Source: Cyclobacteriaceae bacterium | Lineage (GTDB): Bacteria; Bacteroidota; Bacteroidia; Cytophagales; Cyclobacteriaceae | Length of the DNA stretch: 64,000 nt | Assembly (NCBI GenBank): GCA_963664285.2 | Contig: CAXXNX010000060.1 | Span: 14,829 to 78,828, forward strand | Direction of reading: 5' to 3' | Shown: positions 21,671 to 41,436 of the stretch, piece after piece | How the letters are laid out: each line of letters opens with the position of its first letter | Numbering within the stretch: position 1 is the stretch's first letter | The notes under the pieces: model-generated | Told to the model about the DNA's origin: nothing | The model's database searches: none | Seen by the model: only the letters and a program-made list of their open reading frames with translations | Made by a program: the position numbers and the translations under genes

Positions 21671-22124
21671 AATTAATCACTTCTCCCTGGTCCTTGTCTA
21701 GAGAGAACTGCCGGAATAATTGATTCTGATAGTAAAGTGATCGGCTATTATTGACCTTTGATTGCTTAGTGGTAAAATGAGTATGGAAAAACAATGTTAT
21801 TTTTTCTCTGGCCGCAAAAGGCAATCTCAGCTCCTGTGATACACCGGCGCTAAGCATTTGTCTAATAAACCAGCCCTTAAAATATTCCTGCAAAGTGTCG
21901 TCTTCTTCGGCACTTTCCCGGGTAACCCATTCTTCTCCGGTACCTGGGTCCAGTGGCATAACAGGGTTTAGTACCTCACCAGGAAACAAGCGGCTGATGG
22001 CCTCACTTACCGTCAAGGAAGCGAATTGATCTATTTCCTCTTTGGTTCCCCCAAAGGTGGCTCTACGTAATAAATGAGCCGCTCTCTTGGTTCCGAGGAT
22101 ACCAACAAAAGGTTGCAAAGGCAT
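21667..22124 (-). pseudogene. DUF1800-family protein, N-terminal ~150 aa only (IS-truncated)
   Basis: 'AAHLLRRATFGGTKEEI' is the DUF1800 signature. The ORF runs into the IS end (tail ...NPHYS*). Confidence 0.7.
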
Positions 22125-22365: not shown

Positions 22366-23959
22366 TTAATCCTCTTTGATGAATCTTTCGATAAAGATCT
22401 TATCCTTATAGGTTATTTTTAAGATCTAACGCCTGATTTTAAATGAGTTATATTAAAAACACTTATCTGATCTTTATCCAGAATCAATCCTGTTTCATAC
22501 CAATATGTAATGCCGGCAAGATTGTATATAGAAATATTCACCTCTGATTTATGACTGTATGAATTATGAACACTAATTGAACCTTTGTCACTGTTGGAAA
22601 TACCAATATTGATTCAATCATATTCTCTTCCACTCCAGTTATCAAAAATTGAAACTCAATCGATAAGTCCGATGTGCAACTATTGATTGTGGTTTGAACC
22701 TGATAAACGCTTCCTTCTACTGGTAGGATCGAATTGGGAGTTTGATTCTCAAGTGTTATACCATCCTGGATCCATGTATGAATTCCATCCAGCCCTGTAG
22801 TCAGTTCCCCACTGAGTATGGAAATTGTCGGACTTGCAGGAACCTGATCATTGTTATCATCACAATCTGTTCCATTCAATACGAAGCCCACGGGTTGAGT
22901 ACAGGAAGCAGTAGGATCATTGGGATCCCCAAATCCATCACCATCAACATCACGATGCCATGTTTGTTCGATTGTGACTTCTGCATTGTTGTCATCACAA
23001 TCATCGTCATTTGAAGCACTGCCAGCAATTTCGTCACAACTCATAACCGGTGTACTATTTGGGTCACCAAAACCATCTCCATCGGAATCAACATACCAAG
23101 CAACTAATTGATTGACCGTCACTGCTAAATTTACCGAACCGACACCGCCGTCGCCATTTGTTTCAGTCACGGAGACATTTCCGCTTTCTGCTCCTGACCA
23201 ATTGATTGTGATACTATTTCCATTATTGTTAGAAATCATTGCTCCAGTTGGAACAGACCAGTCATACGAAGTACTGAATAAATTATTTGTACCTAAGCTT
23301 GATGTTGCTAATTTCCAATCTGTTATATTTATTCCAGAATTATCATAATTAACTGTTTCTCCTTCAGTTAATGTACCTACATCAATAAAAGCATCGTTAA
23401 CCCAAATACCTTTAGCTACAGCCACTGATTCCCGGCCAATATTTGAACCTTCATATTGCATGAAATGTACCATTTTGGTTTGGTCGCCGAAATTGGAAGT
23501 GCCAGGAAGATACAGTCCCACATCAGCACTAACATCATTCAGATTCAACTCGCCGATAACCACAATCTCACCGGAAGAAAGCAACAAATCCCCTGAAACC
23601 GCATTACCTGAGCTAATTGTCGGATATATGAAACGGGTACATAGGCGATAACCAGTAAGATCCACCTCTCCTACTCCAACATTTTTTAACTCAATTTGAT
23701 CTTGTCCAGAGGTACCATCAAATTTAACTTCATTAATAATTATACTAGGATCCGTGTTAACTGAGTATATCGAGTTTTCATCCTCACACACTTCCCTGGA
23801 ACCAGATATTGGTGAAGTCGTGGGAACGGTTTGAGCCAACAAAGAAATTGGAACAACAACGGAGCATATAAATAAACATGATATGAAATGTCGATTACTT
23901 TTCACGTCTGTAAATACACTGGAGACAAATCCGAGGTTGCTTTCTAACCTATTAGACAT
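22366..23959 (-). pseudogene. secreted lamin-tail-domain / metal-binding-repeat protein with a broken T9SS C-terminal domain
   Basis: It has a signal peptide, an LTD-like segment 'IIINEVKFDG...IELKNVG..VDLTGYRLC' and two 'DGDGFGDP...DCDDNN' repeats. The C-terminal sorting domain ('VNISIYNLAGI...', '...ILKITYKDKIFIERFIKED*') lies in two further frames. Confidence 0.55.
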
Positions 23960-23963
23960 AAAA

Positions 23964-25088
23964 CTAATGAAGCTCTAAAAATTCCATTGGCTCCTGTTGG
24001 TAGATCTCAAACTTTATGTCCTCTAAGGCCAATTCGTAGTATTGCTTAGCCTTATCCTGGTCATTAAGCAATAGGGATAGTCTGGCTAATCCACAATAAG
24101 CTAAGTTTTTGAGGTTGTCAATCTCTTCATTTACTCCCAGCCTAGAGAGTTCAAGTGATTTATTGTACAATGTTTCAGCCAATTCATATTGGAATTCACT
24201 TTCGCTGATAATCGCCTTAAAGACAGTTTTCGCCATTCGATAGTAGGCATGACTACTGTACGGAAAATTATCCAGTGCCATCGCAGCTTCATCATATTGC
24301 CCAAGGAATAGCAGATTTTCAATGTAATTGGCCTTGAAAAAGAGGTTTTTAGGATATTCTTCAGCCAGTATTTTTGCGTATTTTAGCGCTTCTTCAGGCC
24401 TCATTTCATATCTCAGCAAAATGTGACCGCTATAATGAGCTGCTTCAGGTCTCGCAAAAAATGATTCCTCAACGGCTAATTTCAAAAGCCTAAGACCCTC
24501 CTCTTTATCCCCACTTTTGAAAAGCCAGATTATGGTCTTATATATGGGATAGACCTCCGGATATTTCTCCCTGTAGTAGCTATAAAGGCCGGATGAAAAG
24601 TAGAATTCCTTATAATCATCCATTAATTCAAACCCATCCCTGAAATAATTGTATGCTTTTTTTGCCGCAGCCGCAGCCCTAAAATATTGATGGTTACGTG
24701 AATAGTTCAAGGCCATCATTGCATGGGCAATCATGTCAAGATACTTTACTTCAAAATTATCTTCATTTTCATCCAACAAATCGTGGCACTTATCTATTGT
24801 TACGCTCAAAGAGGCCTTCATTCTTTCGAGATCACTCCCATTCAGATTCAAAGGATATTTAGCCCAATAAATACTTAAAGCAATTAACAGATCATTGGCC
24901 GGGTGATCAGGAATTGCTTCTTCCAATGCAGAAGCAGCCTCAGGAAAACTGATTGTATCTGAGTTATAAATATGAAAAAAGCATTCAAAAAGCTTAGACT
25001 TTACCGGCTCTTTCTGGAGAATCAATTGCTGACCAATTGCTCTTGAGAAAATGAAAATGCCAAAAACAATTAAAAGCCAACACTTCAT
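23964..25088 (-). CDS. TPR-repeat protein with signal peptide
   Basis: 374 aa, helical-repeat composition and an N-terminal hydrophobic leader. Confidence 0.6.
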   Translation of the reverse strand: MKCWLLIVFGIFIFSRAIGQQLILQKEPVKSKLFECFFHIYNSDTISFPEAASALEEAIPDHPANDLLIALSIYWAKYPLNLNGSDLERMKASLSVTIDKCHDLLDENEDNFEVKYLDMIAHAMMALNYSRNHQYFRAAAAAKKAYNYFRDGFELMDDYKEFYFSSGLYSYYREKYPEVYPIYKTIIWLFKSGDKEEGLRLLKLAVEESFFARPEAAHYSGHILLRYEMRPEEALKYAKILAEEYPKNLFFKANYIENLLFLGQYDEAAMALDNFPYSSHAYYRMAKTVFKAIISESEFQYELAETLYNKSLELSRLGVNEEIDNLKNLAYCGLARLSLLLNDQDKAKQYYELALEDIKFEIYQQEPMEFLELH

Positions 25089-25387
25089 ATAAAAAGTAAT
25101 GCAATAAGAGGTAAAATAGTTGAAAGGGAAAGATGAATTAAAAAAATGGGATTAACAAGAACGAGCTATAAGCAGTAGCACATAATGTCCGCAGGAGCGT
25201 CTCTGAATGGTGTAAGTTGGTAACTGTCGGGTAACAGAGATACCGGGGCGGGGAATATTATATATATCTAAAAAGATCAAACATGTGTTAATAATTTGAC
25301 CAAAGATCGTAGACAAGATTCCACATATTATGAGATATATCATGCTGTCAAAATACTATCGATCAGCTCGGTACAAATGATAATCTT

Positions 25388-25479
25388 GAAGTGGACTACT
25401 CCCTTTCTTATCATTTTCACATAAATCTCGTTAATTGGTACATGTAAAACGTTAATTTACCCTTAAACAGTAGTCCACT
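25388..25479. promoter_or_regulatory. candidate MocR/PdxR-type operator: 10-bp perfect inverted repeat
   Basis: GAAGTGGACTACT (25388-25400) and AGTAGTCCACT (25469-25479). The second abuts the ATG of the MocR gene. Confidence 0.4.
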
Positions 25480-26985
25480 ATGTTTCCCTGGCAAACTATA
25501 ATAGAAATTGACCGCAGTTGCAGTGTTCCTGTCTACATGCAGGTATCTAACACGATAGCTATTGAGATCCAATCAGGGCGTTTACCGGCCAAAACGAGGT
25601 TACCAAGCACCCGGGTAATGGCAGACATGCTTCGTCTTCACAGAAAAACTGTAACTGCCGCTTATGATGAGCTGTACAGCCAGGGTTGGGTTGATATCAA
25701 ACCCAATAGAGGAACTTATGTTACAGACCTGAACCGTATATTTGAGTCGCAACGTATCGACAGTTTACTAACTAAACCCCACGAAACAGCCAATTTCGAT
25801 TTCAATCATTTTGAGAAACTCGGCGATGCATTCTATCAAAAGCAAAAAATCCTTGAAATCAATGATGGGTTACCAGACGAACGACTTGCTCCCATAGATG
25901 AATTGGCAGCAACTTACCGAAGCATCATAAAAACCAGGGTTTATCGATCCCTATTAGGCATATCTGATGTGCAGGGTGACCTGAAATTAAGGGAAGTATT
26001 GGCCCGCTATCTTGGTGAGACCAGGGGATTGAATTGTGATCCCGACAATATACTCATCACCAGGGGCGGTCAGATGTCTATGTTTCTTATCGCCAATGTA
26101 CTGCTACAACAAGGGGATAACCTGGTGGTCAGCGAGCGCAATTTCTACCTTGCTAACCAGGCATTTAAATATAATGGCGCCAATCTAATTGAAGTGCCTA
26201 GTGATGACGAGGGCATTATGGTAAATGAGGTAGAAAAAATCTGTCAAAAAAGACCCATCAGAGGAATTTTTATCACACCACATCATCATCACCCAACCAC
26301 TGTTACATCTTCATTGGAAAGAAGGATGCACTTACTGGAACTGGCCAGAAAATATCATTTTTCCATTATTGAAGATGATTATGACTACGACTTTCATTAC
26401 GAGAGCGGGCCCATTTTACCTCTGGCCAGTTCTGACAACGCCGGTAACGTTCTCTATTTTGGTTCCTTTTCAAAGATTCTATCCTCATTAATCAGGATTG
26501 GATACCTCATAGCCCCTAAGGAAGTAATCATAGAGCTAAAGAAGGTGAAGCGGCTTTTCGATTACCCTGGAGACACGGTCATGGAGAGAACTTTAGCCGA
26601 GTTGATTCGTGATGGGGTAATCCAGCGTTATTTAAAAAAAGCCCTGAAGGCCTACAAACTGAGGCGGGATCTCTTCTGTGAAATCCTTGACAGGGATTTT
26701 AAAGATGTTTTGAAATATCACAAACCCTCGGGTGGGATGGCAATTTGGGCAGAAATATTACCGCCACATAAGCTCAGTGAACTTTCAGATGCGGCGTTAA
26801 AAAAGCGATTGTATATAGCTAAAGGTGATAATTATTGCTTGCCCGGGCAGGAACCGAACCATCTGAGACTAGGTTTTGCAGGTTTGAACGAAAATGAGAT
26901 AATAACGGCCCTGAAATTGCTAAAGGAGGCTTCCGGTACATTATCATCTAAAAAACATGCAATATTGTCCGAGTTTTCCGTTTGA
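25480..26985 (+). CDS. MocR-family regulator (GntR HTH fused to an aminotransferase-like domain)
   Basis: 501 aa. The N-terminal winged HTH is 'LPSTRVMADMLRLHRKTVTAAYDELYSQGWV'. The C-terminal fold-type I PLP domain has 'GSFSK'. Confidence 0.85.
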   Translation: MFPWQTIIEIDRSCSVPVYMQVSNTIAIEIQSGRLPAKTRLPSTRVMADMLRLHRKTVTAAYDELYSQGWVDIKPNRGTYVTDLNRIFESQRIDSLLTKPHETANFDFNHFEKLGDAFYQKQKILEINDGLPDERLAPIDELAATYRSIIKTRVYRSLLGISDVQGDLKLREVLARYLGETRGLNCDPDNILITRGGQMSMFLIANVLLQQGDNLVVSERNFYLANQAFKYNGANLIEVPSDDEGIMVNEVEKICQKRPIRGIFITPHHHHPTTVTSSLERRMHLLELARKYHFSIIEDDYDYDFHYESGPILPLASSDNAGNVLYFGSFSKILSSLIRIGYLIAPKEVIIELKKVKRLFDYPGDTVMERTLAELIRDGVIQRYLKKALKAYKLRRDLFCEILDRDFKDVLKYHKPSGGMAIWAEILPPHKLSELSDAALKKRLYIAKGDNYCLPGQEPNHLRLGFAGLNENEIITALKLLKEASGTLSSKKHAILSEFSV

Positions 26986-27063
26986 GTGATAAAATTCAGG
27001 TAGGGTATCTATACCGATATCAGTTGTATAGGCAATTACATTAAACACTCAAATAAATTGAAA

Positions 27064-27957
27064 ATGGAAGGAAGATCTATGACAGCAATGATCATAGAAG
27101 GATTAGAGAAAGAGGGATTTCAATGCACTGCAAGGGATAAACAGGTTTACCAACAAATTTTAGATAGTTCTGAAAATTGGCTGGTACCTACAAATAGATC
27201 TGAGTCTGAAATTTGGACTTCCCTTGAAGAGACGCTAGCAAAACCCAAGGCCAGAACAATAATTTTAAAACCTTGGCTAAAATGGGCCGCATCTGTAGCA
27301 ATTATTGCCGCCATTGCAGCGTCATTAATACTTATTATGCCAGATACGCAATCGTTTAAGGCATATGAAATTCAGGAGATTAGCTTACCCGATGGCAGTA
27401 TTGTATCTCTTAATGCCGGTAGTAGCCTGGCTTACAGTGAGAACTTTTTTGGAGCGAGAATACTCACACTTGATGGCAAAGCATTTTTTGACGTTGTAAA
27501 AGGAGATGAATTTCTGATAAATACTGCTAATGGAACGATTGCAGTTCTTGGCACCAGCTTTAATGTCAATACATTTAATAATGAACTGATCGTTGAATGT
27601 TTTACCGGTAAAGTTAAAGTTGATGTGCCCGACAAAAGTTTGTTCTTGACGCCCGGTTTGTCTGTAAAAGCTTCTAATGGTCATCTGGGAGAGGTCTCGG
27701 AATTTGATGTTACAAAATCAAAAAGTTGGATCGACGGAGAGTTTTACTTTCAAAACACTTCTCTCGCCGAGGTTTTTGTAGAAGTAGAAAGGCAATTTGG
27801 GGTTGAAATAAAACTTGAGATTGACATTAAAAATCGAACCTACACCGGTTTATTTAATAATACTGACAATGTTGTAGAGGTGTTAAAAACAATCTGTCTG
27901 CCCATGAGCCTTGTCTTCGACAAAGCCCAAAACAACACTTACGTTGTAACAGATTAG
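27064..27957 (+). CDS. FecR-family anti-sigma/sensor protein
   Basis: One TM segment, then a FecR domain 'DGSIVSLNAGSSLAY...GKAFFDVVKG...VLGTSFNV'. There is no ECF sigma gene upstream. Confidence 0.8.
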   Translation: MEGRSMTAMIIEGLEKEGFQCTARDKQVYQQILDSSENWLVPTNRSESEIWTSLEETLAKPKARTIILKPWLKWAASVAIIAAIAASLILIMPDTQSFKAYEIQEISLPDGSIVSLNAGSSLAYSENFFGARILTLDGKAFFDVVKGDEFLINTANGTIAVLGTSFNVNTFNNELIVECFTGKVKVDVPDKSLFLTPGLSVKASNGHLGEVSEFDVTKSKSWIDGEFYFQNTSLAEVFVEVERQFGVEIKLEIDIKNRTYTGLFNNTDNVVEVLKTICLPMSLVFDKAQNNTYVVTD

Positions 27958-27980
27958 TTGAATAAAGTTTAAAGTTCCTT

Positions 27981-28008
27981 AAAAGGCGGCTTTTGGCCGC
28001 CTTTTTTG
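27981..28008 (+). terminator. rho-independent terminator after fecR-like gene
   Basis: The AAAAGGCGGC-TTTTG-GCCGCCTTTTTT hairpin is followed by a T-run. Confidence 0.7.
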
Positions 28009-28065
28009 TGTTAGATAGGCATCAAATACCTGATTGGCATATTCTCTTTTTGTATATTGTAGCTC

Positions 28066-29067
28066 ATGCAGGATATCATTCATGGCATTAAGCAGCTAAC
28101 TGATAAGGGATCTCATTTTGTAACCGCAACTGTAATAAAAACATGGGGTTCAGGTCCAAGAAAAGTTGGTGCAGGAATGATCATTGGTCCTGAAGGTAGT
28201 ATCCTGGGCTCCGTCAGTGGTGGCTGTGTGGAAGGAGACGTAATAAAAGAAGCCAATCAGGTATGGCTCAATGAAGGAAGTCAATTGCTTCACTACGGCA
28301 TAACTGATGATGAGGCCTGGGAAGTTGGTCTCAGTTGTGGTGGAAAGATAGATATTCTTATAGAGAAAGTTGATCCGTCAAAATCAACGGCCTGGAAGCA
28401 ATTGACTGAACTGGTTACTACCAACTCCGGCTGCGTCTTAACCTCTCCCCTGTCCGGAAGCCATAAGCAGTTGATAATTCAGTTAACCGATGATAATAAT
28501 GACGCGGTAGTCAATTCCGCTTTGGAGGCTTACCGTAAACGAAAAAGTGGGATTTACGACATAGAAGGCGAGGAATACCTTCACAATGTATTTCCAATAA
28601 AATCCCAACTGATAATTGTGGGCGCTGCACACATTTCTTCACAGCTTGTAGAATTGGCCTCAATGCATGACTTTGAGACCATCGTAGTAGATCCCAGAGG
28701 TTTGTTCACTGACAAAACCAGTTTCAATGTAAAACCGGATCAGAGTCATAAGATGTGGCCGGCAGAAATACTAGAAACCATGAAGTTGAATTCCGATGTT
28801 TTTGCCGTACTGCTTACCCATGATCCCAAAATAGATGATCAGGCGCTGCATATCTTTCTACGATCGGGCGTATCATATATAGGAGCCCTAGGAAGCAGCC
28901 GTACGCATGAGAAGCGTAAAACCCGATTAGTGGATGCTGGATTCTCCGAAGATGAAATCTCCAGAATCGATGCACCTATTGGAGTGGATATTAGGGCTAA
29001 GGATCCAAAGGAAATTGCTCTAAGCATTGTTGCGGAACTGATAAAAACAAGAAACAAATTTTTATAG
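28066..29067 (+). CDS. XdhC/CoxI-family accessory protein
   Basis: 333 aa with 'GSGPRKVGAGMII...GSVSGGCVEGDV' and a Rossmann-like C-terminal half. Confidence 0.8.
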   Translation: MQDIIHGIKQLTDKGSHFVTATVIKTWGSGPRKVGAGMIIGPEGSILGSVSGGCVEGDVIKEANQVWLNEGSQLLHYGITDDEAWEVGLSCGGKIDILIEKVDPSKSTAWKQLTELVTTNSGCVLTSPLSGSHKQLIIQLTDDNNDAVVNSALEAYRKRKSGIYDIEGEEYLHNVFPIKSQLIIVGAAHISSQLVELASMHDFETIVVDPRGLFTDKTSFNVKPDQSHKMWPAEILETMKLNSDVFAVLLTHDPKIDDQALHIFLRSGVSYIGALGSSRTHEKRKTRLVDAGFSEDEISRIDAPIGVDIRAKDPKEIALSIVAELIKTRNKFL

Positions 29068-30069
29068 ATGAAAAATCCATTTAAGAATATCCTTCTACTC
29101 ATTGCTATAACTGTCAGTATCGAGAATAGCAATGCTCAAAACTATGCCCTTACTAATGCGAACGTCCTGGATATCGAGTCTGGTAAGATTAATGCGAACC
29201 AAACTGTACTTACCTCCGGGGGGAAAATCGAAAAGATTGATTCTGGTGTTAAAATTCCATCGGATTATGAACGGATTGATATTGGTGGAAGATACGTACT
29301 GCCTGGTCTTATTGACGCTCACACCCATATAAGTTCTATTGATGCAGCATTAAGGGCCTTAAACTCTGGTGTGACTACTGCCAGGAGTGCTAGCACACCG
29401 GCGTATCAGGATGTGGTACTTTCGAGAGATGGTAAGAAAAGGTCAATTAGCTGGTCCTGAAATATTGGCCGCCGGAGTCTTTGTTACACCAGATCTTGGT
29501 GAGTCTATTCTTGCTGATAGTCGTTTGGGAGAATTAATTGAAGGCGTTGAGTCTGAAGAAGTGCTGAGAAAAATAGTAAATATTAATGCTGATCGCGGGG
29601 CAAATGTGATAAAAACCAGGGGTACGGAAAGGGCCGGTCTACCCGACACTGATCCCAGGAAACAGACCTACACGGAGAAGCAGCTTTCAATAATCGTAGA
29701 TGAAGCCACTAAACGAGGTATTCCTGTGATGGCTCATGCTCATGGTGACGAAGGAGCCTATGCTGCGGTTAAAGCTGGAGTTGTTAGCATTGAACATGGT
29801 ACTTACCTCTCCATGAGAACACTGCAATTGATGAAAGAGAAAGGCACTTATTTGGTACCGACCTATACGACGGTAGTAGATCTAGCCGAGCCCGGCGGAG
29901 ATTATGACAATCCCATATTGACATTCCGCGGAAAGCACATGCTACCAGCCCTTGAACAGGCTGTCCAAAACGCTAGGAAGATCGGTGTCAAAATCGTAAC
30001 CGGTGCTGATACCCGTTATGGCCCGGAAAGTATTACCAGGATATCAACCGAAATCGAGAACTTAGTTAA
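29068..30069 (+). pseudogene. secreted amidohydrolase, frameshifted and C-terminally truncated by IS copy E
   Basis: It has a signal peptide and the 'LPGLIDAHTHI' metal motif. The frameshift is at 'gtacTTTcgagag' (~29424). The ORF runs into the IS end (tail ...NPKNS*). Confidence 0.75.
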
Positions 30070-33069
30070 CCCGAAAAATTCATAGTAGACAATAAAAAAC
30101 AGGCATAAATTGCTTATATTGAGATAGTTAGACAACAAAATAAGCAATTAATTTATGCCTGAATATAAGGAAAAAGATACCGTATTTTATCGAGGAAAAC
30201 AAGCTTTTAAATTTGATTTTTCAGCATCAGCGATTAGCTCAGACGGAGCGATATTGTTAAGTGAAAAAGTAGAGAGAAAGACTGGTCTATTAAAAAGCTT
30301 CGCCGCACTGATTCCTGACTATCGAAACCCCTTTTTTATCGAATACACTTATGAAGAAATGCTTCACCAACGGGTGTTTTTAATGATGCAGGGCTATCAG
30401 GATTGCAATGACGAACAAAAACTCCGAGAGGATCCGGTGATCCGTAAAGTACTAGATAGCGGATTATGTTCCCAGCCTACTTTAAGCATTATTCATAGGC
30501 CACAATTTTGGGATTAATAATGGGTTGCTAACTATTTTTGATTGGAGTGTATGTATTAAAAATCAAAGACATTAGAGCAGAATTTTTCAATTTTCAGTCA
30601 AATCTATTGTGTTCTTATGGAAGAACATTTTTTTGATTAATGTTTAACTGATCGGTCAGTTCACCGTAAGCAAATCGCCCAGCAGGTATTGATATCTAAA
30701 GGCTCTTGAGAATTGTATTGTCAATGATCTTTTCCTTTCTTTCAGGCACGCCCCAACCTTCATCAGGTAAAAATTGTCCACTTGCCATCGTTTAGCAAAG
30801 TGGTGTTTTGTTTTGGCAATTAATAATTTAATCTGCCGGAACATTTATAACAGAGGGTAGATGAAAACGCATGAAATTGGCCCAGTAGCGATGACAGGAA
30901 AGCCGGTCGGAATAAGTCATGTTTTTGAGTTCCTTTATTGATTTTCACTGGCATCACCTCGCTTGACATAAAAATCAAAGTAAATCAGCGGTCATCGCTT
31001 CAAAGTTGCTCACAAAGTAACGGACATTCATTCCTCGGTAGACTCCACTTTGGCGTACAGCTTTTCAGAACGATCCCAGCTTTTGCCTTAAGTGAAAACG
31101 GGCCAACAAACTCTTGATGTTTGATGATTTTTGAAGCATATTCCTTTTTTACTTCAATGATAGTCTGTTTGGTAAAAGCTAATACCTAAACAAAATTGAA
31201 GGTCAAACTGCTTAGCTATCCGATAAAAAGACTGAAAAGACTATCCGCTCGAATAAGAATCTTTACTGAGGGCAGTTTTTTTCGATAAGGCCACAAACCA
31301 TTTGTTGGAGTGACAATTGCCCGGACGTATACGTAAAATGACCTGACTTAAAGAACAACTATGGATAGTCTGATAATGCCATTTCTGAGTTGTTGGGATC
31401 CATGAGTAGGGTCATCGGTACCATCTACATCAATGATGATTTGACCAGTCTTCTCTTTCAACTCCTCTACATAACGGTCTTTGACTCATCTGGTAGATCA
31501 GACTCCGATAGGCCTTGTTTTCAAATCGACTTAAAGTAGGCTGGGAACATAATCCGCTATCTAGTACTTTACGGATCACCGGATCCTCTCGGAGTTTTTG
31601 TTCGTCATTGCAATCCTGAATCATTAAAAAACCCGTTGGCGAAATTTCTTCATAAGTGTATTCCGAGTCAGGAGTGCGGCGAAGCTTTTTAATGATCGTA
31701 CTGAGCTAATCGCTGATGTGAAAAATCTAAAAGCTTGTTTTCCTCGATAAAATACGGTATCTTTTTCCGGCATAAATTAATTGCTTATTTTGTTGTCTAA
31801 CTATCTCAATATAAGCAATTTAGCCTGTTTTTTATTGTCTACTATGAATTTTCGGGTTAAGTCGATTTGAAAACAAGGCCGATCGGAGTCTGATCTACCA
31901 GATGAGTCAATGGTTTGTAGACCGTTATGTAGAGGAGTTGAAAGAGAAGACTGGTCAAATCATCATTGATGTAGATGGTACCGATGACCCTACTCATGGA
32001 TCCCAACAACTCAGTTTGTATAATGGCTATTATGGACAGACTATGTACCATGAGTTGTTCTTTAAGGACGGGAACACCGGTCAGGTCATTTTACCAGTAC
32101 TACGTCCGGGCAATTGTCACTCCAACAAATGGTTTGTGGCCTTATTGAAAAGGATTGTCATTAAAATCAGAAAAAAACTGCCCTCAGTAAAGATCCTTAT
32201 TCGAGCGGATAGTGGCTTTTCAGGAGCATCTTTTTATCGGATAGCTAAGCAGTTTGACCTTCAATTTTGTTTAGGTATTAGTAGTAATGAAGTTTTAAAG
32301 ACTTTTACCAAACAGACTATCATTGAAGTAAAAAAGGAATATGCTTCAAAAATCATCAAACATCAAGAGTTTGTTGGCCCGTTTACTTACCAGGCCAAAA
32401 GCTGGGATCGTTCTGAAAAGCTGTACGCCAAAGTGGAGTCTACCGGAAAAGGAATGAATGTCCGTTACTTTGTGAGCAACTTTGAAGCGATGACCGCTCA
32501 ACAGATTTACTTTGATTTTTATGTCAAGCGAGGTGATGCCAGTGAAAATCGAATAAAGGAACTCAAAAACATGACTTATTCCGACCGGCTTTCCTGTCAT
32601 CGCTACTGGGCCAATTTCATGCGTTTAATCATCGCTACCCTCTGTTATGAAATGTTCCGGCAGATTAAATTATTAATTGCCAAAACAAAACACCACTTTG
32701 CTAAACGATGGCAAGTGGACAATATCCGGCTTTACCTGATGAAGGTTGGGGCGTGCCTGAAAGAAAGGAAAAGATCATTGACAATACAATTCTCAAGAGC
32801 CTTTAGATATCAATACCTGCTGGGCGATTTGCTTACGGTGAACTGACCGATCAGTTAAACAGTTTGGTTTAATCAAAAAAATGTTCTTCCATAAGAACAC
32901 AATAGAGCTTTGACTGAAAATTGAAAAATTCTAACAAAAAAACGCTCTAATGTCCTTTGAAATCCAGAAACCTGGTTGATCTTCAAATTAATACATACAC
33001 TCCAATCAAAAATAGTTAGCAACCCATTATTAATCCCAAAATTGGTGGCCTATGAATAATGCGGGATAA
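30066..33069 (+). mobile_element. IS1380-family-like IS, copy E, split by nested copy F
   Basis: E-left is 30070-30485 (416 bp) and E-right is 31861-33065 (1,205 bp), which sum to 1,621 bp. The TTAA at 30482 is duplicated at 31857. The outer flanks are TTAA and ATAA. Confidence 0.9.
30486..31856 (-). mobile_element. degenerate nested IS copy F (1,371 bp, riddled with small deletions)
   Basis: It is collinear with the consensus in reverse orientation but lacks ~250 bp, spread over roughly 30 deletions of 1 to a few tens of nt. The IRR tip CCC is missing. The IRL is the 4-T variant. Confidence 0.85.
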
Positions 33070-34222
33070 GGCTAGGTAGAAAAATATCATCGTCCCTTGC
33101 TGCCTGCATATTTAGCAATCCGACTCGTAATCGGTTATTGATTTTACCATTCAATCTAAAACCAGCAAAAATCCTATTCTGAACATTTGCAGTATCTATG
33201 GCAACACCTATTCGTCGAGAGAAAAAAGGCCTGGCATCTTCAGTACCAAATGAGGCAAACAAGTCGGCATTTTCCAGGAAGAACTGCCGCCGCTCCGGAA
33301 AGAATATTTCAAAACGATCTACATTGGTTACTTGGCGGTCAACTTCTACCTGTGAGAAATCCGGATTAAAAGTAAGATCTAAGTTCATAGATGGAGTTAG
33401 GGCGATTTTGACATCCCCTCCTATCTCTCTTTCAAATTGAGTAGCATCATCTTCCTCAAAATCCTTACTTGCACCACCTGCCAGGTACGGAATTACAGAA
33501 ATATTAGAACCCGGTTTTGGTAGGGGTTTATCCCAAATAAGTTCACCGGTATAGGAAAGAGAATAGAGTCTAAAATTACGAGGAACCCTATTCCAGGCCG
33601 CCCGCTCATTAGTTTTACTTATCAACCCGGTAGGCGTTGAAATACCAGCGATCTGAACCTTCGGGAAATCGGATAGTTTTAAACGGAATGGCTAGCTCCG
33701 CTGACCAGGAATTGTCATTCATGCTGGACTCACCAATCCATTTGTTATCCCAGTCTAAAGAGAGGTCTTCTGGTAAACTACCACCATTGGCTATCAATCC
33801 TTCACGCTGTACCCATATGGATTGATACCGAAAGTATAAGCATTTGTCTGGTCACGAAATGTATCGAATATAAGGTTAACACTTTCAATCCCAGGACCTC
33901 GAAAATCGCGGCGTTGTGATAACATCACAAAATCACTACCCGGATCTGTGTCGTTGCATTTTATTCCCACATAGAGGTACACTTTATTGTAAGTAAGAAG
34001 TACCTCACACTGTGAAATAGAAAGTGAAGAGTCGTAAGGAAACGTTTGAATGAAATCCCTGGCCGGTTCTACATTAACCCAGGCTTCATCATCCAGAACA
34101 CCATCAATATTAATAGTGGAATTAACTTCATTAATATGAACAGTCTTTTTTTTAATTTCTTGCGCATGGTTTACATGAAACAGCAAGTTTAAAAGCAATA
34201 TTTGTATACCAAGAAATTTCAC
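33066..34222 (-). pseudogene. CBM9-like/DUF5916 outer-membrane-associated protein: two frameshifts, C-terminus cut by IS E
   Basis: Three consecutive ORF pieces (33794-34222 with signal peptide, 33615-33797, 33050-33625) overlap by a few nt. The last piece runs into the IS end (...NPHYS-type tail). Confidence 0.6.
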
Positions 34223-34414
34223 CCCTCCCCTAATAATGACAAATTTATTTCAAAAAAACTGGGGATTAATTTCATTCAATGCTCACTATACGATAAGAGG
34301 TATCTTATCCTTATAAATATTATATATAAGTCATAGTACTTGAACTTACAATATTATATTACTGTCAGAAAACAAGGCTTGCTAAGTACTGAAAAAGAAA
34401 CAACCTTTACGAAA

Positions 34415-35710
34415 ATGAAAAATCCAAAAATCACCACGTACTGCATTCTGTTAATAGCTATTTGTACGATTGCCTGTAGTAGATCTGTCAATGAGCATCA
34501 GGAGAGCACAGTTGTCTTCAAAGGAGGGCAAATCATTGATGGTAAAGGCAATGTCATAAATAATGGAGTGTTGGTCACCAAAAACGGTAAAATTGAATCG
34601 GTAACTGATTCCAATCAATACGAAATTTCCGAAAATGCTGAAGTGATTGACATAACAGGCAAAACAATCATGCCCGGTTTGATCAATTCTCATGGTCATA
34701 TTGGCGATGTTAAGGGTCTGGAGTCAGGGAATTATTCCAGCGAAAATATTCTGGTTCAATTAAGGCTCAATGCGAGGTATGGAGTAACTACTATTCTCAG
34801 TCTCGGCGGTGATGGTAGTGAGGTGACAGATATAACTGCATCTCAGCAATCAGCCGGTCTTGACTATTCCCGGCTTTTCATCGCCGGTCAGGTTGTAACC
34901 GGAAGCACACCTGAAGAAGCGATTGCCATTGTTAATCAAAACGCTTCTCTACCAACTGATTTTATCAAGATCAGGGTGGACGATAACCTGGGGTCATCTG
35001 AAAAAATGTCTCCGGAAATATATCAGGCAGTTATAGATCGGGCACATGAACTCAATCTGCCTTTAGCCGCACATCTCTTCTATCTTAATGACGCAAAATC
35101 ATTATTAGCATCCGGAGCAGATTTTATCGCTCATAGTATCAGGGATAGATCTGTTGACAACGAAGTAATTGCTCTGTTCAAAGAAAAGAATGTCTGTTAC
35201 TGTCCCACCCTAACCAGAGAGATTTCTACTTTTATTTACGAATCGACTCCCGAATTTTTCAGTGACCCATTCTTTCTTAAGGAAGTGGACCCCAACATTA
35301 TAAACACATTAAATGACCCTGAAAGGCAGCAAAAGATAAGAGAAAGTCGAAGCGCTCAGCTCTATAAACAAGCGCTTGATACTGCTCTTTTAAACTTAAA
35401 ACTTCTGAGTGATTCAGGAGTAACAATTGCTTTCGGAACTGATTCAGGGCCTCCTGCTCGTTTTCAAGGCTACTTTGAACACCTTGAACTTGAATTGATG
35501 GTTCAAGCAGGTCTTACACCCATGCAAGCCATTGTATCAGCAACCGGTCAGGCGGCAGAGTGCTTGAAGTTAAATGACATTGGAACATTGGAAAAAGGAA
35601 AATGGGCCGATTTTATCATTCTTACTAATAGTCCGCTTGAGAATATAATCAATACACGATCTATAGAATCGGTTTGGATATCTGGTAATAAAGTCCCGGA
35701 GAAATTATAA
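34415..35710 (+). CDS. amidohydrolase-family lipoprotein
   Basis: The likely start 'MKNPKITTYCILLIAICTIACS' is a lipobox-like leader. It has the 'MPGLINSHGHI' metal motif and the ORF is intact. Confidence 0.8.
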   Translation: MKNPKITTYCILLIAICTIACSRSVNEHQESTVVFKGGQIIDGKGNVINNGVLVTKNGKIESVTDSNQYEISENAEVIDITGKTIMPGLINSHGHIGDVKGLESGNYSSENILVQLRLNARYGVTTILSLGGDGSEVTDITASQQSAGLDYSRLFIAGQVVTGSTPEEAIAIVNQNASLPTDFIKIRVDDNLGSSEKMSPEIYQAVIDRAHELNLPLAAHLFYLNDAKSLLASGADFIAHSIRDRSVDNEVIALFKEKNVCYCPTLTREISTFIYESTPEFFSDPFFLKEVDPNIINTLNDPERQQKIRESRSAQLYKQALDTALLNLKLLSDSGVTIAFGTDSGPPARFQGYFEHLELELMVQAGLTPMQAIVSATGQAAECLKLNDIGTLEKGKWADFIILTNSPLENIINTRSIESVWISGNKVPEKL

Positions 35711-35809
35711 ACATTCACCTACCAGCTATCGGGATACCATTTTTGGCGACAATTCACCTTGTCGGTCGTTGAATGAAATTGTTCTGATTAATAGGTACCT
35801 ACTTACCGT

Positions 35810-36067
35810 CTACAAAAGTTCCATCTTCTTTAGATGATCAACCCAGGGCTTATATCCATTTCTATTCAGATGCAGACCATCATCGGTCGGCTCTTCTCTA
35901 AGTCGCTGACGTGAGTCAAGAAAGAGTGGGAAGAAATTGATGAAACGTACCCCGCTGTCCGATGCTATTATGAATAAAAGCTGGTTAGTCATTAGAACGT
36001 GATATTGTTTATCGTAGCGCTGTGGAAATCCTGGATACTCCGGGTTAACAGGGAGACTAATAATCAA
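35810..36067 (-). pseudogene. SGNH/GDSL hydrolase, C-terminal fragment
   Basis: 85 aa ending in the catalytic 'DDGLHLN' block. The N-terminal GDS block is absent and the upstream gene abuts directly. Confidence 0.5.
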
Positions 36068-38133
36068 GTACTTCCTTAATGGCGATCACAACTTTGTCAA
36101 CAGAGGGTATCATTGTTTTTTCCAATGCGGAATTCAAAGGAATAGCAGGCATGTTTTCTGAACCCATCATTTTAACCGGTGCATCAAGGTGTTCAAAACA
36201 ATTTTCCTGTATTCTGGCGGCGATACTTTGAGCGAATGAGTTATCTACGGGCTCTTCTGTAATCACCAGACATCTCCCATGCTTCCTGACAGCATCGAAA
36301 ATCAGGTTCGTATCAAGGGGAAAAAGTGTTCTGAGATCAATTATCTCAACGCGACCTTTGAATTTTTTCGAGGCATTCAGCGCCCAGTGAACACCCATAC
36401 CATAGGTGATGACAGCCAATGTACTTTCTGACGGTGTCGTTGATTCTAAAACAATACTTCCTTTGCCAAATGGTATGACATAGTCACTGGATGGCTCTAT
36501 ACATTTAGCAGCCTCTGTTCCCTTCACTTTGGACCAGTAAAGTCCTTTGTGTTCAAACATCACTACAGGATTGGGATCAAGGAAGGCTGACTTCATCAGA
36601 CCCTTCATGTCAGCGGCGTTACTGGGATAAGCTACTTTGATTCCCTTAATATTACAGACCACCGATTCGACACTAGTACTATGGTAAGGCCCCCCGCTAC
36701 CGTATGCACCTATAGGAACTCTTATTATAGTGGTCACTGGCCATTTTCCATTGGATAAGTAATAGGAGCGACTGACTTCTGAGAACAATTGATTCAAACC
36801 GGGCCATATGTAATCAGCAAATTGTACTTCAACGATGGGCTTAAGACCAACAGCTGACATTCCTACAGTACTGCCAATAATAAAAGCCTCCTGGATGGGT
36901 GTATTAAATACCCTATTTTTCCCAAATTTCTCAGCTAAAGTCGCTGCTTCTCTAAAAACACCTCCCAATCTTAATCCAACATCCTGGCCATACAATAGAC
37001 ATTCAGGATATTCTTCCATTAGTTCTTCCACCGCATGCAAGGCAGCGTCTACCATCATAGTGGTTTCGCCATTTTCCGGTTTACGCACACCCTTTTCCTC
37101 CGTTACGTTTGTCGGAGCAAAATCATATGTAAACAAATCTTCTGGCTTAGGGTCGGCTGCCATCGTGGCACGTTCAAAATCTTGGTCAACCACTTTATGT
37201 GCGTCACTTTGAATTTTATTCAGTTTCTTGACCAAAATACCTTCCTCGACCAATTGATCTTTAAAAAAGGGAAAAGGATCATACTCTTTATGGTAATCAA
37301 GATCATCTCGATACCACTCTTTCCTTACCCCTGAAGTATGATGACTCAGCAATGGCACTTTGGCATGTATCAACGCTGGTTTCCTGGTATTTCTTACCGT
37401 TTCAATAACTTCCGTCACTATAGGATAGCACTTGAAAAAGTTAGTACCATTTAATTTATAAACCTCTATACCGGGAAATCCCTTCACATATTCTGATGAG
37501 TCCATAGCCCGGATCTCACTAGCATGCGCTGAAATATCCCACTCATTATCCTGCGCCAGGTATACTATAGGTAACTGTCTCAAAGCAGCCATTTGAAAAG
37601 CTTCTGCAACCTCTCCTTCTGTAACGGATGCATCACCCCAGAGAGAAAACCACTACTGGCGCTTCTCCGGTTGTCTTATACTTATTCAGTCCCTGCTGTT
37701 CGCGATATTGAATGCCGAGGGCAATACCAGTAGTTGGAGTGGCTTGCATTCCAGTTGCAGAGGATTGATGTGGTATTTTGGGCTTATCAGGATCTCTTAG
37801 GCTGGGGTGTGAATAGTATGATCGCCCTCCTGAAAAAGGGTCGTCTCGCTTGGCCATCAGTTGAAGCATTAGATCATAGGGCGTGCATCCGATGCCTAAC
37901 AAAATAGCGTCATCCCGGTAATAGGGAGCTATAAAATCCTGGAGTTTTAGCTGCAATCCTACCGCGAGCTGAATGGCCTCATGCCCCCTGGAGGTGGCAT
38001 GGACATATTTGGAGGTTAATTTTGCATTAGCCTCATATTTTTCAGACATGGCCTTAGCTGTGGCCATGAGTTCAAAGGCTTTCAGCAAAACATCCTCAGT
38101 TATCGCTAACTGATCCAATACTGTTTTACTCAT
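36057..38133 (-). pseudogene. fused alpha/beta E1 component of a 2-oxoacid dehydrogenase, frameshifted
   Basis: ORFs 37633-38133 (E1-alpha part) and 36057-37592 (rest plus the transketolase-like beta part). '...VVFSLG' joins 'DASVTEGEVAEAFQMAAL' if one G is removed from the GGGG run near 37640. Confidence 0.75.
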
Positions 38134-38235
38134 TCTTGGGTCTTAATACAAATATAAGGCTATTCAACGCTTAGCCTCGAAATTACAGGACCATCATATT
38201 GTTCTATGAAGGGGTATGGCCCCAAGTCAAAGAAG

Positions 38236-38295
38236 GTCACATTGAACCGGTCGAAATGTAAGCTAAGGAGCAATAAATGAGGTTTCGACAGGCTC
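38236..38295. repeat. REP-like palindromic element
   Basis: GTCACATTGAACCGGTCGAAA (38236-38256) faces GGTTTCGACAGGCTC (38281-38295). The latter is identical to 6535-6549. Confidence 0.55.
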
Positions 38296-38338
38296 CTGAT
38301 AACAATTGAACTTTTGAAACAGCTTCTCTAAAATTTTT

Positions 38339-39730
38339 TTAACCGCCTCCGGCAAATATTCCAAAGATACCGAGCATATTCAAAAGTACGGCCAGGATAA
38401 CCAATGGGCATATGAATCGGATAAAGAATATAAATACCTTGGATGGCGTGCCACCCGGAGTAAATAATTCCGACCCCTCTCCAAGTTCAGTGACAATCTT
38501 ATCAATAGGCATAACCCATCCCACATAGACGCAGGTTGCCAAGGCTACAACAACAATAAAGAATGTTCCCCAGAAATAGTCTAATAATGCTTGATAACCT
38601 ACAATAGGTGCATCCAACCAGGGCAAACTGACACTCATCTCGGTAAAAAATGAATTGGCTCCCCATGATAAGGATGAGGGGACACCAAACAAAAAGACCA
38701 AACCTCCAACTACCCAAGCTGATTTCTTACGTGACCACTTCTTCTCATCAATAAAATAGGATGAAGGAACTTCAAGCATAGAAATTGATGAAGTGAGTGC
38801 GGCCACCATCAATAACAAGAAGAAAAAGGCACCGATGATTGAGCCACCAGGCATAGAATTAAAGATTTCAGGAAGTACAACAAATACTAGAGCTTGTCCC
38901 TCCGCAGGGTCTTTGCCAAAAGCGAAAACTGCTGGAAAGATCATAAAGCCAGCCAACAGTGCGACACTTGCGTCCATAAACCCTACCCAGACAGCACTAC
39001 TGACAATGTTCGCATCTTTAGGTAAATAAGAGCCATAGGTTATCATGATGCCCCAGCCTATACTCATAGAGAAAAAAGCCTGACCAAGTGCCACTAAAAA
39101 TGTATTTCCAGTTACTTTGCTGAAATCAGGATTTAGATAAAAGTCAAGACCAGCCATAGCACCATCAAGCATTAATGCTCTGATCGCGACGATCAGAATT
39201 AGCACAAACAGCAGGGGCATAAGGATTTTTGCAGCTTTCTCAATGCCGCCGGAAACTCCCAATTGAACTATGAAGATGGTAATTAGAACAAAAAGAGCCA
39301 TTAGCGGTATTGTATATCCAGCATTGGCTGCAAAATCAGCAAAGCTTCCCGTTGACCCAGTTATTGATTTAAAAATGAAAGCAATGGTCCAACCAGCGAT
39401 ATTGGCATAGTAAGCAAGAACAAAGAAACTTACTCCTATGGCCATTACAGCACCTATACCTACCCAGAATGGAGATGCGCCGGTGCCTTTGAACGCTCCA
39501 ATAGGACTCTTACTGCTTAACCTGCCTAGTCCGATCTCAGTGAAAAGGAGTGGTACTCCTATGAGGATCACACACATGACATAAATCAACACAAATGCTC
39601 CTCCACCGTTTTCACCTGTGATATAAGGGAATCTCCAAATATTACCCAAGCCAACTGCAGAACCTGCGGTGGCCATAATAAAACCAAACTTACTACTCCA
39701 TTTTTCTCTAGATGCGTCCATTGTTTCCAT
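38339..39730 (-). CDS. neurotransmitter:sodium symporter (NSS/SNF) family transporter
   Basis: 'GFIMATAGSAVGLGNIWRFPY' signature with ~12 TM helices. The likely start is METMD at 39730. Confidence 0.85.
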   Translation of the reverse strand: METMDASREKWSSKFGFIMATAGSAVGLGNIWRFPYITGENGGGAFVLIYVMCVILIGVPLLFTEIGLGRLSSKSPIGAFKGTGASPFWVGIGAVMAIGVSFFVLAYYANIAGWTIAFIFKSITGSTGSFADFAANAGYTIPLMALFVLITIFIVQLGVSGGIEKAAKILMPLLFVLILIVAIRALMLDGAMAGLDFYLNPDFSKVTGNTFLVALGQAFFSMSIGWGIMITYGSYLPKDANIVSSAVWVGFMDASVALLAGFMIFPAVFAFGKDPAEGQALVFVVLPEIFNSMPGGSIIGAFFFLLLMVAALTSSISMLEVPSSYFIDEKKWSRKKSAWVVGGLVFLFGVPSSLSWGANSFFTEMSVSLPWLDAPIVGYQALLDYFWGTFFIVVVALATCVYVGWVMPIDKIVTELGEGSELFTPGGTPSKVFIFFIRFICPLVILAVLLNMLGIFGIFAGGG

Positions 39731-39946
39731 ATAAATTCTTTTAAAGCGGCTAAAATAAAACATTCCTACTGTTAGGCAGTAGTTTTAATATTTCCCATGA
39801 TTTTTAATAGATTTAATGTTAGGAAATCGAGATAGTATGTGCACATTACGTTTAGATGAATATTTTCTGATCGAAATTCCCTGTCTGCAGACAGGCAAGC
39901 AACTCTGCGATGAAATCAATTGTTTACATGAAACCAAGCGCGCTAC

Positions 39947-40675
39947 ATGAAAATACTGACGCTAATATTATTATTCACAGTTTTATTTAGCGCAACGCAC
40001 GCTGATAACTATGTATATAAAGTTATTCTTGTAAGAGCTGCACCCGATAAATTACAGGAGTTAATCGAGCTGCTCAAGCAAGATATGGTTAACTACCAAA
40101 AATTCGGAATGGAAAAACCCTATATGATGCGACACAGCCAGGGAGATCAATGGGATCTTTTCATTATCTGGCCGATCGAATCAATGGGTAAGTATTTTAA
40201 CGAAACTAACATGCTTAAACGAGCTGAATCCGTATTACTGGATAAGCCCTATGACAATATAATTTGGGATTATATCGCACACCACGAAGAACTTTTTGTT
40301 GAAGGACCTAAGCTGACAGAATTCAAAAATATGTTTGATAGTTATGACTATTATCATGTGGAAATGTTCATAGCGCTCGCCAATAAAAGACGTGAACTAC
40401 TCAATGAGCGGGTAATGGAAAACGACTATCTAATAGCAATTGGCAGAAGGCCAAATCTGATCTTCAATAAGGTCGCTGGGAGCAGATGGGATAATTTTTC
40501 CATTGGTTTTTATGAAGATATTAAAGATTATGCGGCCAGCGCAGATATTGATCCAATGCTCAAAGAGAAAGCAGCACGGGAAGCAGGGTTTAAAGGAGCA
40601 GATTTTATTGGTAGTTACTTAAGACGCTTCATCAATGAGCATCACGATACACTGGCTGGTGCTATAAAAAATTAA
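39947..40675 (+). CDS. hypothetical secreted protein
   Basis: 242 aa with a signal peptide. I recognise no family. Confidence 0.5.
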   Translation: MKILTLILLFTVLFSATHADNYVYKVILVRAAPDKLQELIELLKQDMVNYQKFGMEKPYMMRHSQGDQWDLFIIWPIESMGKYFNETNMLKRAESVLLDKPYDNIIWDYIAHHEELFVEGPKLTEFKNMFDSYDYYHVEMFIALANKRRELLNERVMENDYLIAIGRRPNLIFNKVAGSRWDNFSIGFYEDIKDYAASADIDPMLKEKAAREAGFKGADFIGSYLRRFINEHHDTLAGAIKN

Positions 40676-40686
40676 ATTATAAACCA

Positions 40687-41283: not shown

Positions 41284-41436
41284 TTTATTTCAGTTAAAGA
41301 CGTAAGATTAACGCATTCCCCGTTTTTACTATTAAAGGGTTATTCTACAGTATTTTCAAATGCAATAATATCCTATGATCATCTTAATACGCCTTAACAA
41401 TTGAGCAAATGAACTAAAAATGTGTATATTGATGTT

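Follow-up and report, generated by a model that had tools for sequence, protein, structure and literature searches.

The stretch of DNA analysed here (the window, 64,000 nucleotides from a Cyclobacteriaceae bacterium) comes from a very IS-rich genome and contains ten copies of one insertion sequence (IS). One copy (E) is split by a second, inverted copy (F), and 11 kb upstream a full-length inverted copy (C) abuts the right part of another split element (D). The features of the two loci are as follows.

18838-20457, reverse strand: C, full-length inverted copy of 1,620 bp with five private substitutions and the A4 variant of the left inverted repeat (IRL), abutting D at the internal TTAA
20458-21666, forward strand: TTAA and D, another split element of which just the right part (IS positions 417-1621) is present
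30066-30069, forward strand: target-site TTAA at the left end of E, as flanks nearly all ends of the IS
30070-30485, forward strand: E-left, IS positions 1-416 (416 bp), closing with the internal TTAA at 30482-30485
30486-31856, reverse strand: F, the inverted inner copy, 1,371 bp against 1,621 bp (global alignment and blastn)
31857-31860, forward strand: duplicate of E's internal TTAA, the target-site duplication from the insertion of F
31861-33065, forward strand: E-right, IS positions 417-1621 (1,205 bp), fully matching partial copy D (20462-21666)
33066-33069, forward strand: ATAA instead of TTAA at the right end of E, also present in an independent contig

The element is 1,621 bp long and has CCCG...CGGG tips (left end CCCGAAAAATTCATAG, right end CCCGCATTATTCATAG) with 4-bp TTAA flanks in nearly every copy. 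Its single ORF encodes a 438-aa transposase that matches both family models end to end, NF033539 with 321.8 bits (cut-off 180, residues 19-424) and PF13701 (DDE_Tnp_1_4) with 376.8 bits (residues 17-435). Members of the IS1380 family, as defined in ISfinder, measure 1.55-2.0 kb, have one ORF and are bounded by terminal inverted repeats that begin with CC, with direct repeats of 4-5 bp. The element agrees with these in model matches, size (1.6 kb), ORF, repeats (starting with CC) and 4-bp target duplication, and belongs to this family. By contrast, its strict targeting of TTAA and its CCC...GGG tips are hallmarks of eukaryotic piggyBac, and no description of them among IS1380 members was found in the searchable literature. 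TTAA was present at 37 of 45 listed ends, some of them from overlapping loci, and the other eight were ATAA (4), TTAG (2), a further single TTAG and a single CTAA; the CCCG...CGGG tips were present in every copy, except at the right end of F. An inversion between copies H and I was considered as a source of their TTAA/CTAA and TTAG/TTAA flanks and was rejected, as it did not restore matching duplications. TTAA duplication and CCC...GGG termini are features of the piggyBac superfamily, yet a Pfam scan gave only PF13701 and PF01609 and no piggyBac-type transposase (DDE_Tnp_1_7 with a C-terminal cysteine-rich domain). Thus, the element is piggyBac-like at its target but is not a member of that superfamily. 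IS1380 has been regarded as a distant prokaryotic relative of piggyBac (PMC10140906).

The original prediction placed F in inverted orientation at an internal TTAA of E and argued that F had entered a pre-existing element. The first statement holds and the second is supported. The two halves of E (span 30070-33065) add up to a complete element (416 + 1,205 = 1,621 bp) and are contiguous in an empty-site allele from an independent assembly (L001), the TTAA occurs at both 30482 and 31857, and both ends of F are present, minus 3 bp at the right end. Also correct was the estimate that the halves of E lie about one substitution from the consensus: G301A, at 30366, is the sole private difference from a seven-copy consensus, and no indels were found in 1,621 bp. 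E-left is 100% identical to the same stretch of an independent contig, G301A included. Unique sequence flanks the nest, with an amidohydrolase gene on the left (about 29.9 kb) and a DUF5916 gene on the right (about 33.2 kb). The arrangement resembles other nested IS-in-IS insertions, in which the host is split at one site, the target is duplicated, the halves together complete the element and there is an allele with the empty site. It is unlike them in that the guest appears far more damaged than the host, a difference that we attribute to an assembly effect.

Global alignment of F with the consensus gave 48 deletion gaps of 1-35 bp (16 of 1 bp, nine of 2 bp, 253 bp in total), two insertions (1 and 2 bp) and two substitutions, G441T and C755T, both private to F; with blastn, there were 42 gap openings (251 gap bases in all) and 11 mismatches. 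The earlier figures of about 250 bp lost and a handful of substitutions are therefore supported, whereas roughly 30 deletions was an undercount. Comparison of ends confirmed that the right inverted repeat (IRR) of F lacks its terminal GGG/CCC tip, as had been noticed before, whereas every other end, in the window as well as in ten related loci, keeps CCCG/CGGG. With the terminal GGG gone, F cannot have transposed in its current state. In addition, the IRL of F is of the A4 and not the A5 type, and A4 was found only in C and F.

Indels outnumbered substitutions by 50 to 2 in F, compared with four indels and 16 variable sites in the other seven copies combined. They end exactly at the borders of F, and the contrast between 50 indels in F and none in the surrounding E cannot be due to chance. 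Neutral pseudogene decay would require more substitutions than indels and a similar decay of host and guest. Neither was seen (50 indels and two substitutions in F, no indels and one substitution in E), in line with the earlier judgment that the pattern is abnormal for a decaying pseudogene.

Microhomology at the deletion borders, which the original prediction had proposed to score, was depleted. Its mean was 0.29 at the 48 borders versus 0.75-0.81 expected from random placement, scored with and without re-alignment, and values this low occurred in 0 of 150 and 0 of 2,000 simulations. Moreover, 13 of the 16 one-base deletions were at non-homopolymer bases (p = 0.007). Replication slippage would enrich direct repeats or homopolymers at the borders and is thus disfavored. 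Hairpin bypass was also rejected, since deleted segments plus flanks did not differ in folding energy from random segments (summed, -26.0 versus -22.4 +/- 6.7). The depletion of microhomology is accounted for by none of the models considered.

An independent view of the locus was provided by an ENA metagenome contig, ctg52890 (L001/L007/L008), which matches the window at 22898-30486 and 31857-46891 with 99.89-99.97% identity. Over about 24 kb the two are 99.9% identical, E is intact, F is precisely absent and one TTAA remains; a nearly identical genome with an intact E and without F therefore exists. We compared about 29.6 kb of the window with contigs ctg52890 and ctg37188 of that assembly. 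The window carried 14 substitutions (a divergence of approximately 0.05% in the flanks) and 13 extra bases, and no deletions were found in the flanks. One extra base, at 32933, resembles a variant of the independent contig itself, and the remaining 12 are located at two places.

13748, no strand: a single extra T that breaks an MR_MLE (enolase-superfamily) gene, intact with 357 aa in independent contig L010
41931-45048, no strand: eleven inserted bases at ten sites, with zero substitutions relative to the independent contig, breaking a radical-SAM gene, which is whole (352 aa) in the independent contig, and others

At least five of these 12 bases fall inside genes left unbroken in the other assembly, namely those for the MR_MLE protein, the radical SAM protein and an IS200/IS605-type Y1 transposase (146 aa). 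All insertions at 41931-45048, with one possible exception, repeat the neighboring base. Copy A carries three further +1 insertions. Together with the 12 window-specific bases, these suggest that local indel-only errors occur elsewhere in this assembly.

We lean toward the view that the insertion of F is recent and polymorphic in the population, and that its apparent erosion arose during consensus building and not in the cell. Among the four explanations offered originally (mobilization of an eroded copy in trans, gene conversion that rescues E, an unusual deletion process and an assembly or consensus artefact), the last is favored by the absence of F from ctg52890, where E is intact, and by the other error-like, indel-only discrepancies of the window assembly. 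It is further supported by the excess of indels over substitutions, which stops at the borders of F and spares E, by microhomology below random expectation, by the missing GGG tip, without which the eroded F could not have transposed, and by the lack of matches to F-specific junctions in GTDB representative genomes and JGI metagenomes and of any record of three F-specific ORF products. According to this proposal, F would have nested in E recently and would be carried by only some members of the sampled population. Molecules without F, or otherwise ambiguous repeat reads, would supply "gap" evidence across exactly the F segment, and a polisher could then strip scattered bases and short blocks from it. 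The outcome would be deletions only, with hardly any substitutions and sharp limits at the borders of F, and the halves of E would be spared. On this view, the true F is probably a full-length copy from the lineage that also gave rise to C, as both carry the rare A4 variant in the IRL.

A precedent also argues for a consensus artefact: where alleles of different length are collapsed, indel errors are documented to enter the consensus of long-read assemblies (PMC8445201). The two cases share indel-only errors where the sampled molecules vary in length, and genes that are broken in one assembly and intact in another. However, the documented cases are small frameshifts, whereas F, with 48 patches that remove 15% of a 1.6-kb segment, shows a more extreme pattern, for which we found no documented case. 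Several points weigh against an artefact. The other error-like discrepancies of the contig are +1 insertions, which indicate an imperfect assembly but not the same failure mode. Under simple error models, such as raw nanopore or PacBio noise or pile-up voting, homopolymer-associated deletions should be in excess, but a deficit was observed. Furthermore, G441T and C755T are not required by an artefact, the contig without F may be just another strain, and we know of no specific polisher that produces patchy deletions of 1-35 bp. Strand-specific nanopore errors are known to occur at inverted repeats; these would affect the arms in E equally and do not explain the confinement to F, and they were rejected as the cause.

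A second possibility, which we consider unlikely, is that F really eroded in the cell, with about 48 small microhomology-free deletions occurring in situ within a very short time and the outer copy being spared. F and E form long inverted repeats (1,205-bp arms 420 bp apart, and 416-bp arms), and candidate processes include breakage provoked by hairpins in these repeats or by the transposase, followed by end joining, and faulty or non-processive gap-repair synthesis following excision attempts. Here the sequence would stand as described, the low microhomology would fit end joining better than slippage, the long-tailed distribution of deletion sizes looks natural, and the two private substitutions suggest an identity of F of its own. 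However, all of the roughly 48 independent events would have to fall in F and none in E, the other arm of the same inverted repeats, within a period in which the flanks could diverge by only about 0.05% in substitutions. In addition, the hairpin signal is absent from the deleted segments, the pattern was found in no other copy, neither in the remaining nine of the window nor in the dozen or so from related contigs, and we know of no bacterial process that does such damage. If true, this would represent a localized deletion-only mutational process to which the inner copy is subject when a piggyBac-like bacterial IS nests in itself in inverted orientation, i.e., an unknown and highly local bacterial process that possibly disarms inverted repeat nests.

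Slightly less probable still is that the whole of F is a misassembly and a mere ghost of C, with reads that belong to C/D placed at the E locus and then badly polished. The C/D junction is the same as the F/E-right junction, at the same internal TTAA and including the rare A4 IRL, E-right matches D at 100% identity along 1,205 bp, and F is absent from the independent assembly. Moreover, the E-left/F junction, the sole one unique to the nest, is imperfect, lacking CCC. However, F has the consensus allele at two of the five positions private to C (898 and 1234), two others being deleted and one ambiguous. A spurious 1.4-kb insert with a correctly duplicated TTAA and both IS ends would also need supporting reads, and both loci, which lie within one contig, are otherwise clean. 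As for C/D itself, the left part of D is absent. A composite with two right ends that moved as a unit was rejected, since the outer flanks are unrelated truncated genes (the 5' end of an aminotransferase gene and the N-terminal part of another protein). The junction between the right end of C and the aminotransferase gene was confirmed in independent contig L010.

It is very improbable that F represents a shorter, non-autonomous subfamily, or that it had eroded before the transposase of an intact copy mobilized it in trans. The ends of F are largely present, the TTAA is duplicated and many intact transposase genes lie close by, but one end lacks the terminal GGG. Neither the F-specific junction TTTAGGTATTAGCTTTTACCAAAC nor the E-left/F junction was found in GTDB representative genomes or JGI metagenomes, and look-ups of three F-specific ORF products returned none on record; these results disfavor the mobilization of an eroded copy that had been suggested. 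A distinct subfamily, also suggested earlier, found no support either, since no F-like copy and no second copy with any of the F-specific junctions examined was found in the window, ten related loci, GTDB representatives or JGI metagenomes, whereas a family of deletion derivatives would comprise several copies with shared internal deletions and intact termini. All other copies in the window and these loci reach at least 99.3% identity, and none has more than four gap bases. In addition, an indel-to-substitution ratio of 25:1 is equally unexplained wherever the erosion happened. Ds elements derived from Ac, and deletion derivatives of the P element, are internally deleted non-autonomous transposons that arise via abortive gap repair. 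They resemble F in having internal deletions and largely kept ends. However, such derivatives form families and have each lost sequence at one or a few places, often with microhomology or filler, whereas the 48 deletions of F are depleted of microhomology, its tip is damaged and no relatives of it were found.

The least probable explanation is decay of E and F alike, followed by gene conversion that repaired E alone from intact copies. It draws on many near-identical donors and on evident IS-mediated rearrangements (e.g., the non-contiguous flanks of C/D and of E), but is unsupported. F shows no substitution excess to begin with, and no mechanism would skip F, whose homology to the donors equals that of E. 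E retains its private substitution, shared with an independent contig, and so was not recently overwritten, which already points to an unconverted orthologue.

Given a consensus artefact as the preferred reading, the erosion of F is probably not a biological oddity, and its main implication is one of caution. A population-polymorphic repeat copy in long-read metagenome contigs can emerge from the consensus resembling a decayed pseudogene, and such artefacts would mislead work on IS age, decay rates and pseudogene content. The nesting of a TTAA-specific IS1380 element in itself is ordinary, and is a small addition to the picture of this very IS-rich genome.

The IS contains 16 internal TTAAs, and the one at site 417 was used by three nests (E/F, D/C and L002). 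We do not claim an insertion hot spot, given sampling bias and shared ancestry: loci L002-L006 were retrieved via the 314-aa ORF of E-right and were hence selected for a break there, and C/D and F/E probably share ancestry through the A4 variant. The third nest, L002, is intact and in direct orientation at the same internal TTAA.

Ten full or partial copies (A to J) of a 1,621-bp insertion sequence were detected in the window. The consensus, built from seven copies, encodes a single 438-aa transposase, which matched Pfam PF13701 with 376.8 bits and the NCBIfam model NF033539 "IS1380 family transposase" with 321.8 bits (cut-off 180); its nearest named relative (83% identity) came from a Cyclobacteriaceae metagenome-assembled genome. 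The termini are CCCG...CGGG, and TTAA adjoins nearly every element end in the window and in ten related loci, except for ATAA at the right end of E, CTAA at the right end of H, and TTAG at the left end of I and at one copy in locus L009. Every feature that could be tested places the element in the IS1380 family.

Copies of the element in the window (coordinates include the 4-bp flanks)
Copy A: 3896-5527, minus strand
Copy B: 7200-8828, plus strand
Copy C: 18834-20461, minus strand
Copy D: 20458-21670, plus strand, right part only
Copy E: 30066-30485 plus 31857-33069, plus strand
Copy F: 30486-31860, minus strand
Copy G: 45263-46891, plus strand
Copy H: 53037-54665, plus strand
Copy I: 55896-57524, minus strand
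Copy J: 62793 to window end, plus strand

IS1380 is regarded as a remote prokaryotic relative of piggyBac (PMC10140906). The element resembles piggyBac in its near-strict TTAA duplication and CCC...GGG tips, but its transposase lacks a piggyBac-type transposase domain (Pfam). No description of these two features in IS1380 members was found in the literature searched. Imperfect target-site pairs were observed for E (TTAA/ATAA, 33066-33069), H (TTAA/CTAA, 54662-54665) and I (TTAG/TTAA, 57521-57524), which may represent non-canonical targets, point changes or inter-copy recombination; an inversion between H and I did not restore matching repeats and was rejected as the source of the H and I flanks. 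In addition, the transposase ORF of copy A (3896-5527) is 425 aa rather than 438 aa, and neither B (longest ORF, 302 aa) nor C (381 aa) has a full-length transposase ORF.

The nest formed by E and F has the geometry originally predicted. The left half of E (30070-30485, 416 bp) ends at the element's internal TTAA and is directly followed by F in inverted orientation; TTAA is repeated after F (31857-31860), and the right half of E (31861-33065, 1,205 bp) brings the sum to 1,621 bp. E was correctly described as near-intact, with a single private substitution relative to the consensus (G301A, at 30366). It is flanked by two convergent truncated genes. To its left, both the window and an independent contig carry an amidohydrolase gene (29068-30085) broken into two overlapping ORFs, one of 130 aa and one of about 224-232 aa; this frameshift is probably genuine rather than introduced by assembly.

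Aligned globally against the consensus, F showed 48 deletion gaps totaling 253 bp, so that the predicted loss of about 250 bp with few substitutions held, whereas the estimate of roughly 30 deletions was too low. Sixteen deletions were of 1 bp and nine of 2 bp, and the largest were of 35, 22 and 20 bp; F also carries two insertions, of 1 bp and 2 bp, and the two substitutions G441T and C755T. With its own gap costs, blastn opened 42 gaps, comprising 251 bases, and counted 11 mismatches. The GGG tip of the right inverted repeat of F is absent, as had been noted, and the indels end exactly at the borders of F. Microhomology at the deletion borders, a check suggested with the original prediction, was below random (mean 0.29, compared to 0.81 for random placement and 0.75 for simulated deletions re-aligned), and no simulation among the 2,000 and the 150 run, respectively, gave a value this low. 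Among the 16 one-base deletions, 13 removed a base unlike both neighbors (p = 0.007). No excess secondary structure was found in the deleted segments of F.

A protein look-up identified an independent ENA metagenome contig (ERZ28669063 ctg52890, containing loci L001, L007 and L008) that matched window positions 22898-30486 and 31857-46891 with 99.89-99.97% identity. In this contig, E is unbroken, with one TTAA at the position occupied by F in the window. Its left half of E is 100% identical to that of the window, including the private G301A, and thus both genomes carry the same E insertion. F inserted into a pre-existing E, as the original prediction had ordered these events, and the insertion is polymorphic; at the nest locus the two assemblies differ in the presence of F only. 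Relative to the independent assembly, 14 substitutions and no deletions in the window were observed across 29.6 kb of flanking sequence.

The erosion of F, although confirmed as a sequence observation, most probably does not reflect real biology. Judging from the assembled sequence, the most likely explanation is a consensus artefact. F would be a genuine recent insertion carried by only part of the sampled population; an F-less allele demonstrably exists (ctg52890). F-less molecules aligned across the nest, at consensus building or polishing, would contribute gap evidence covering precisely the F interval, and bases would be stripped from F in patches. The deletion-only spectrum, sharp borders, pristine E halves and damaged junction tip would thereby be explained. 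When alleles of unequal length are merged, long-read consensus assemblies are known to acquire indel errors (PMC8445201).

Indel-only discrepancies were also detected elsewhere in this assembly. Compared to ctg52890, the window contains eleven extra bases at ten sites, with zero substitutions, in a 3.1-kb cluster (41931-45048); all but possibly one duplicate an adjacent base. A radical-SAM gene (352 aa) and an IS200/IS605-type (Y1) transposase (146 aa) are intact in the contig and fragmented in the window. Similarly, an IS1595-like fragment (44738-45267) differs from four paralogous copies on other contigs almost entirely by gaps, and copy A has three +1 insertions absent from all other copies. 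A second independent contig (ctg37188, locus L010), spanning window positions 12025-19041, showed four substitutions; in addition, the window has a single extra T, at 13748, which disrupts an MR_MLE (enolase-superfamily) gene of 357 aa in ctg37188. The twelve window-specific inserted bases (41931-45048 and 13748) are, by this comparison, probably consensus errors. When gene-breaking indels are as numerous as substitutions between genomes of 99.95% identity, and one assembly carries all of them, this is typical of consensus error and not of evolution.

A weakness of the artefact explanation is that the simple voting models considered do not predict such a deficit of microhomology. The deletion pattern is also unlike raw long-read homopolymer errors. 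Some polishers treat homopolymer lengths as a step of their own, and errors of the homopolymer type could be removed selectively in this way. Together, the microhomology deficit and the avoidance of homopolymers by one-base deletions are predicted by no model considered, biological or technical.

F could also be a "ghost" of copy C generated by read mis-recruitment. C adjoins D in inverted orientation at the internal TTAA that F also occupies in E, D is 100% identical to the right half of E, and a run of four rather than five A in the left inverted repeat occurs only in C and F among eight ends in the window and about ten in independent contigs. Since no other deletion in F is clearly of the homopolymer type, this shortened run was probably inherited as a true variant rather than generated as noise, and it ties F to C through descent or read mis-recruitment. 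However, at positions 898 and 1234, two of the five that are private to C, F matches the consensus, which argues against a pure ghost. C and D (18834-21670) form a second inverted nest, in which the left part of the outer element is missing; the outer flanks are unrelated truncated genes, namely an aminotransferase 5' end (17768-18837) and, at 21671-22124, the N-terminal 150 aa of a different protein. This arrangement is an IS-mediated rearrangement, and the right-end junction of C was confirmed in ctg37188.

A real, local deletion-only process, such as end joining of breaks within the inner arm or non-processive repair synthesis following attempted excision, appears improbable: it would have to strike F about 48 times and E not once while the flanks diverged by only about 0.05%. 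A process dependent on hairpin geometry should strike both E and F, since both are arms of the same inverted repeats. Replication slippage was rejected as a source given microhomology below random and one-base losses mostly outside homopolymers.

Mobilization in trans of an already eroded F, which had been proposed, is unlikely. Throughout the window and the related loci, the CCCG/CGGG tip is lost only at the right end of F and retained at all remaining ends; thus, at least the tip deletion post-dates insertion, beside an untouched left half of E. A 24-mer across the 20-bp deletion of F was absent from GTDB representative genomes and JGI metagenomes, the junction between F and the left half of E (with or without CCC) was absent from JGI metagenomes, none of three queried F-specific ORF products was on record, and no other eroded copies were present in the window or in L001-L010. 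These searches likewise gave no indication of a distinct shorter subfamily. Judged by sequence comparison, ordinary decay cannot account for F, as originally argued (50 indels and 2 substitutions, versus 4 one-base indels and 16 variable sites in the seven other copies combined).

Nested self-insertion is ordinary: locus L002 contains a clean direct-orientation nest whose inner copy, inserted at the same TTAA, is intact. The paradox would gain interest only if spanning reads carried the deletions of F. Three nests occur at one of 16 internal TTAAs; we do not claim an insertion hot spot, since L002-L006 were retrieved through the ORF in the right half of E, and were thereby selected for a break there, and the C/D and F/E nests are probably related.

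Insertion sequences are very abundant in this genome. Near these copies are an IS200/IS605-type Y1 transposase (41903-42331) and an IS1595-family fragment (44738-45282) cut by copy G. ctg52890 (L008) tracks the window to the end of G (46891) and then continues into other genes (FtsX, Rieske and others), so a structural breakpoint separating these two genomes lies at G. An IS630-like (DDE_3) element (47445-48694) is 99.5% identical to one interrupting the IS in locus L003.
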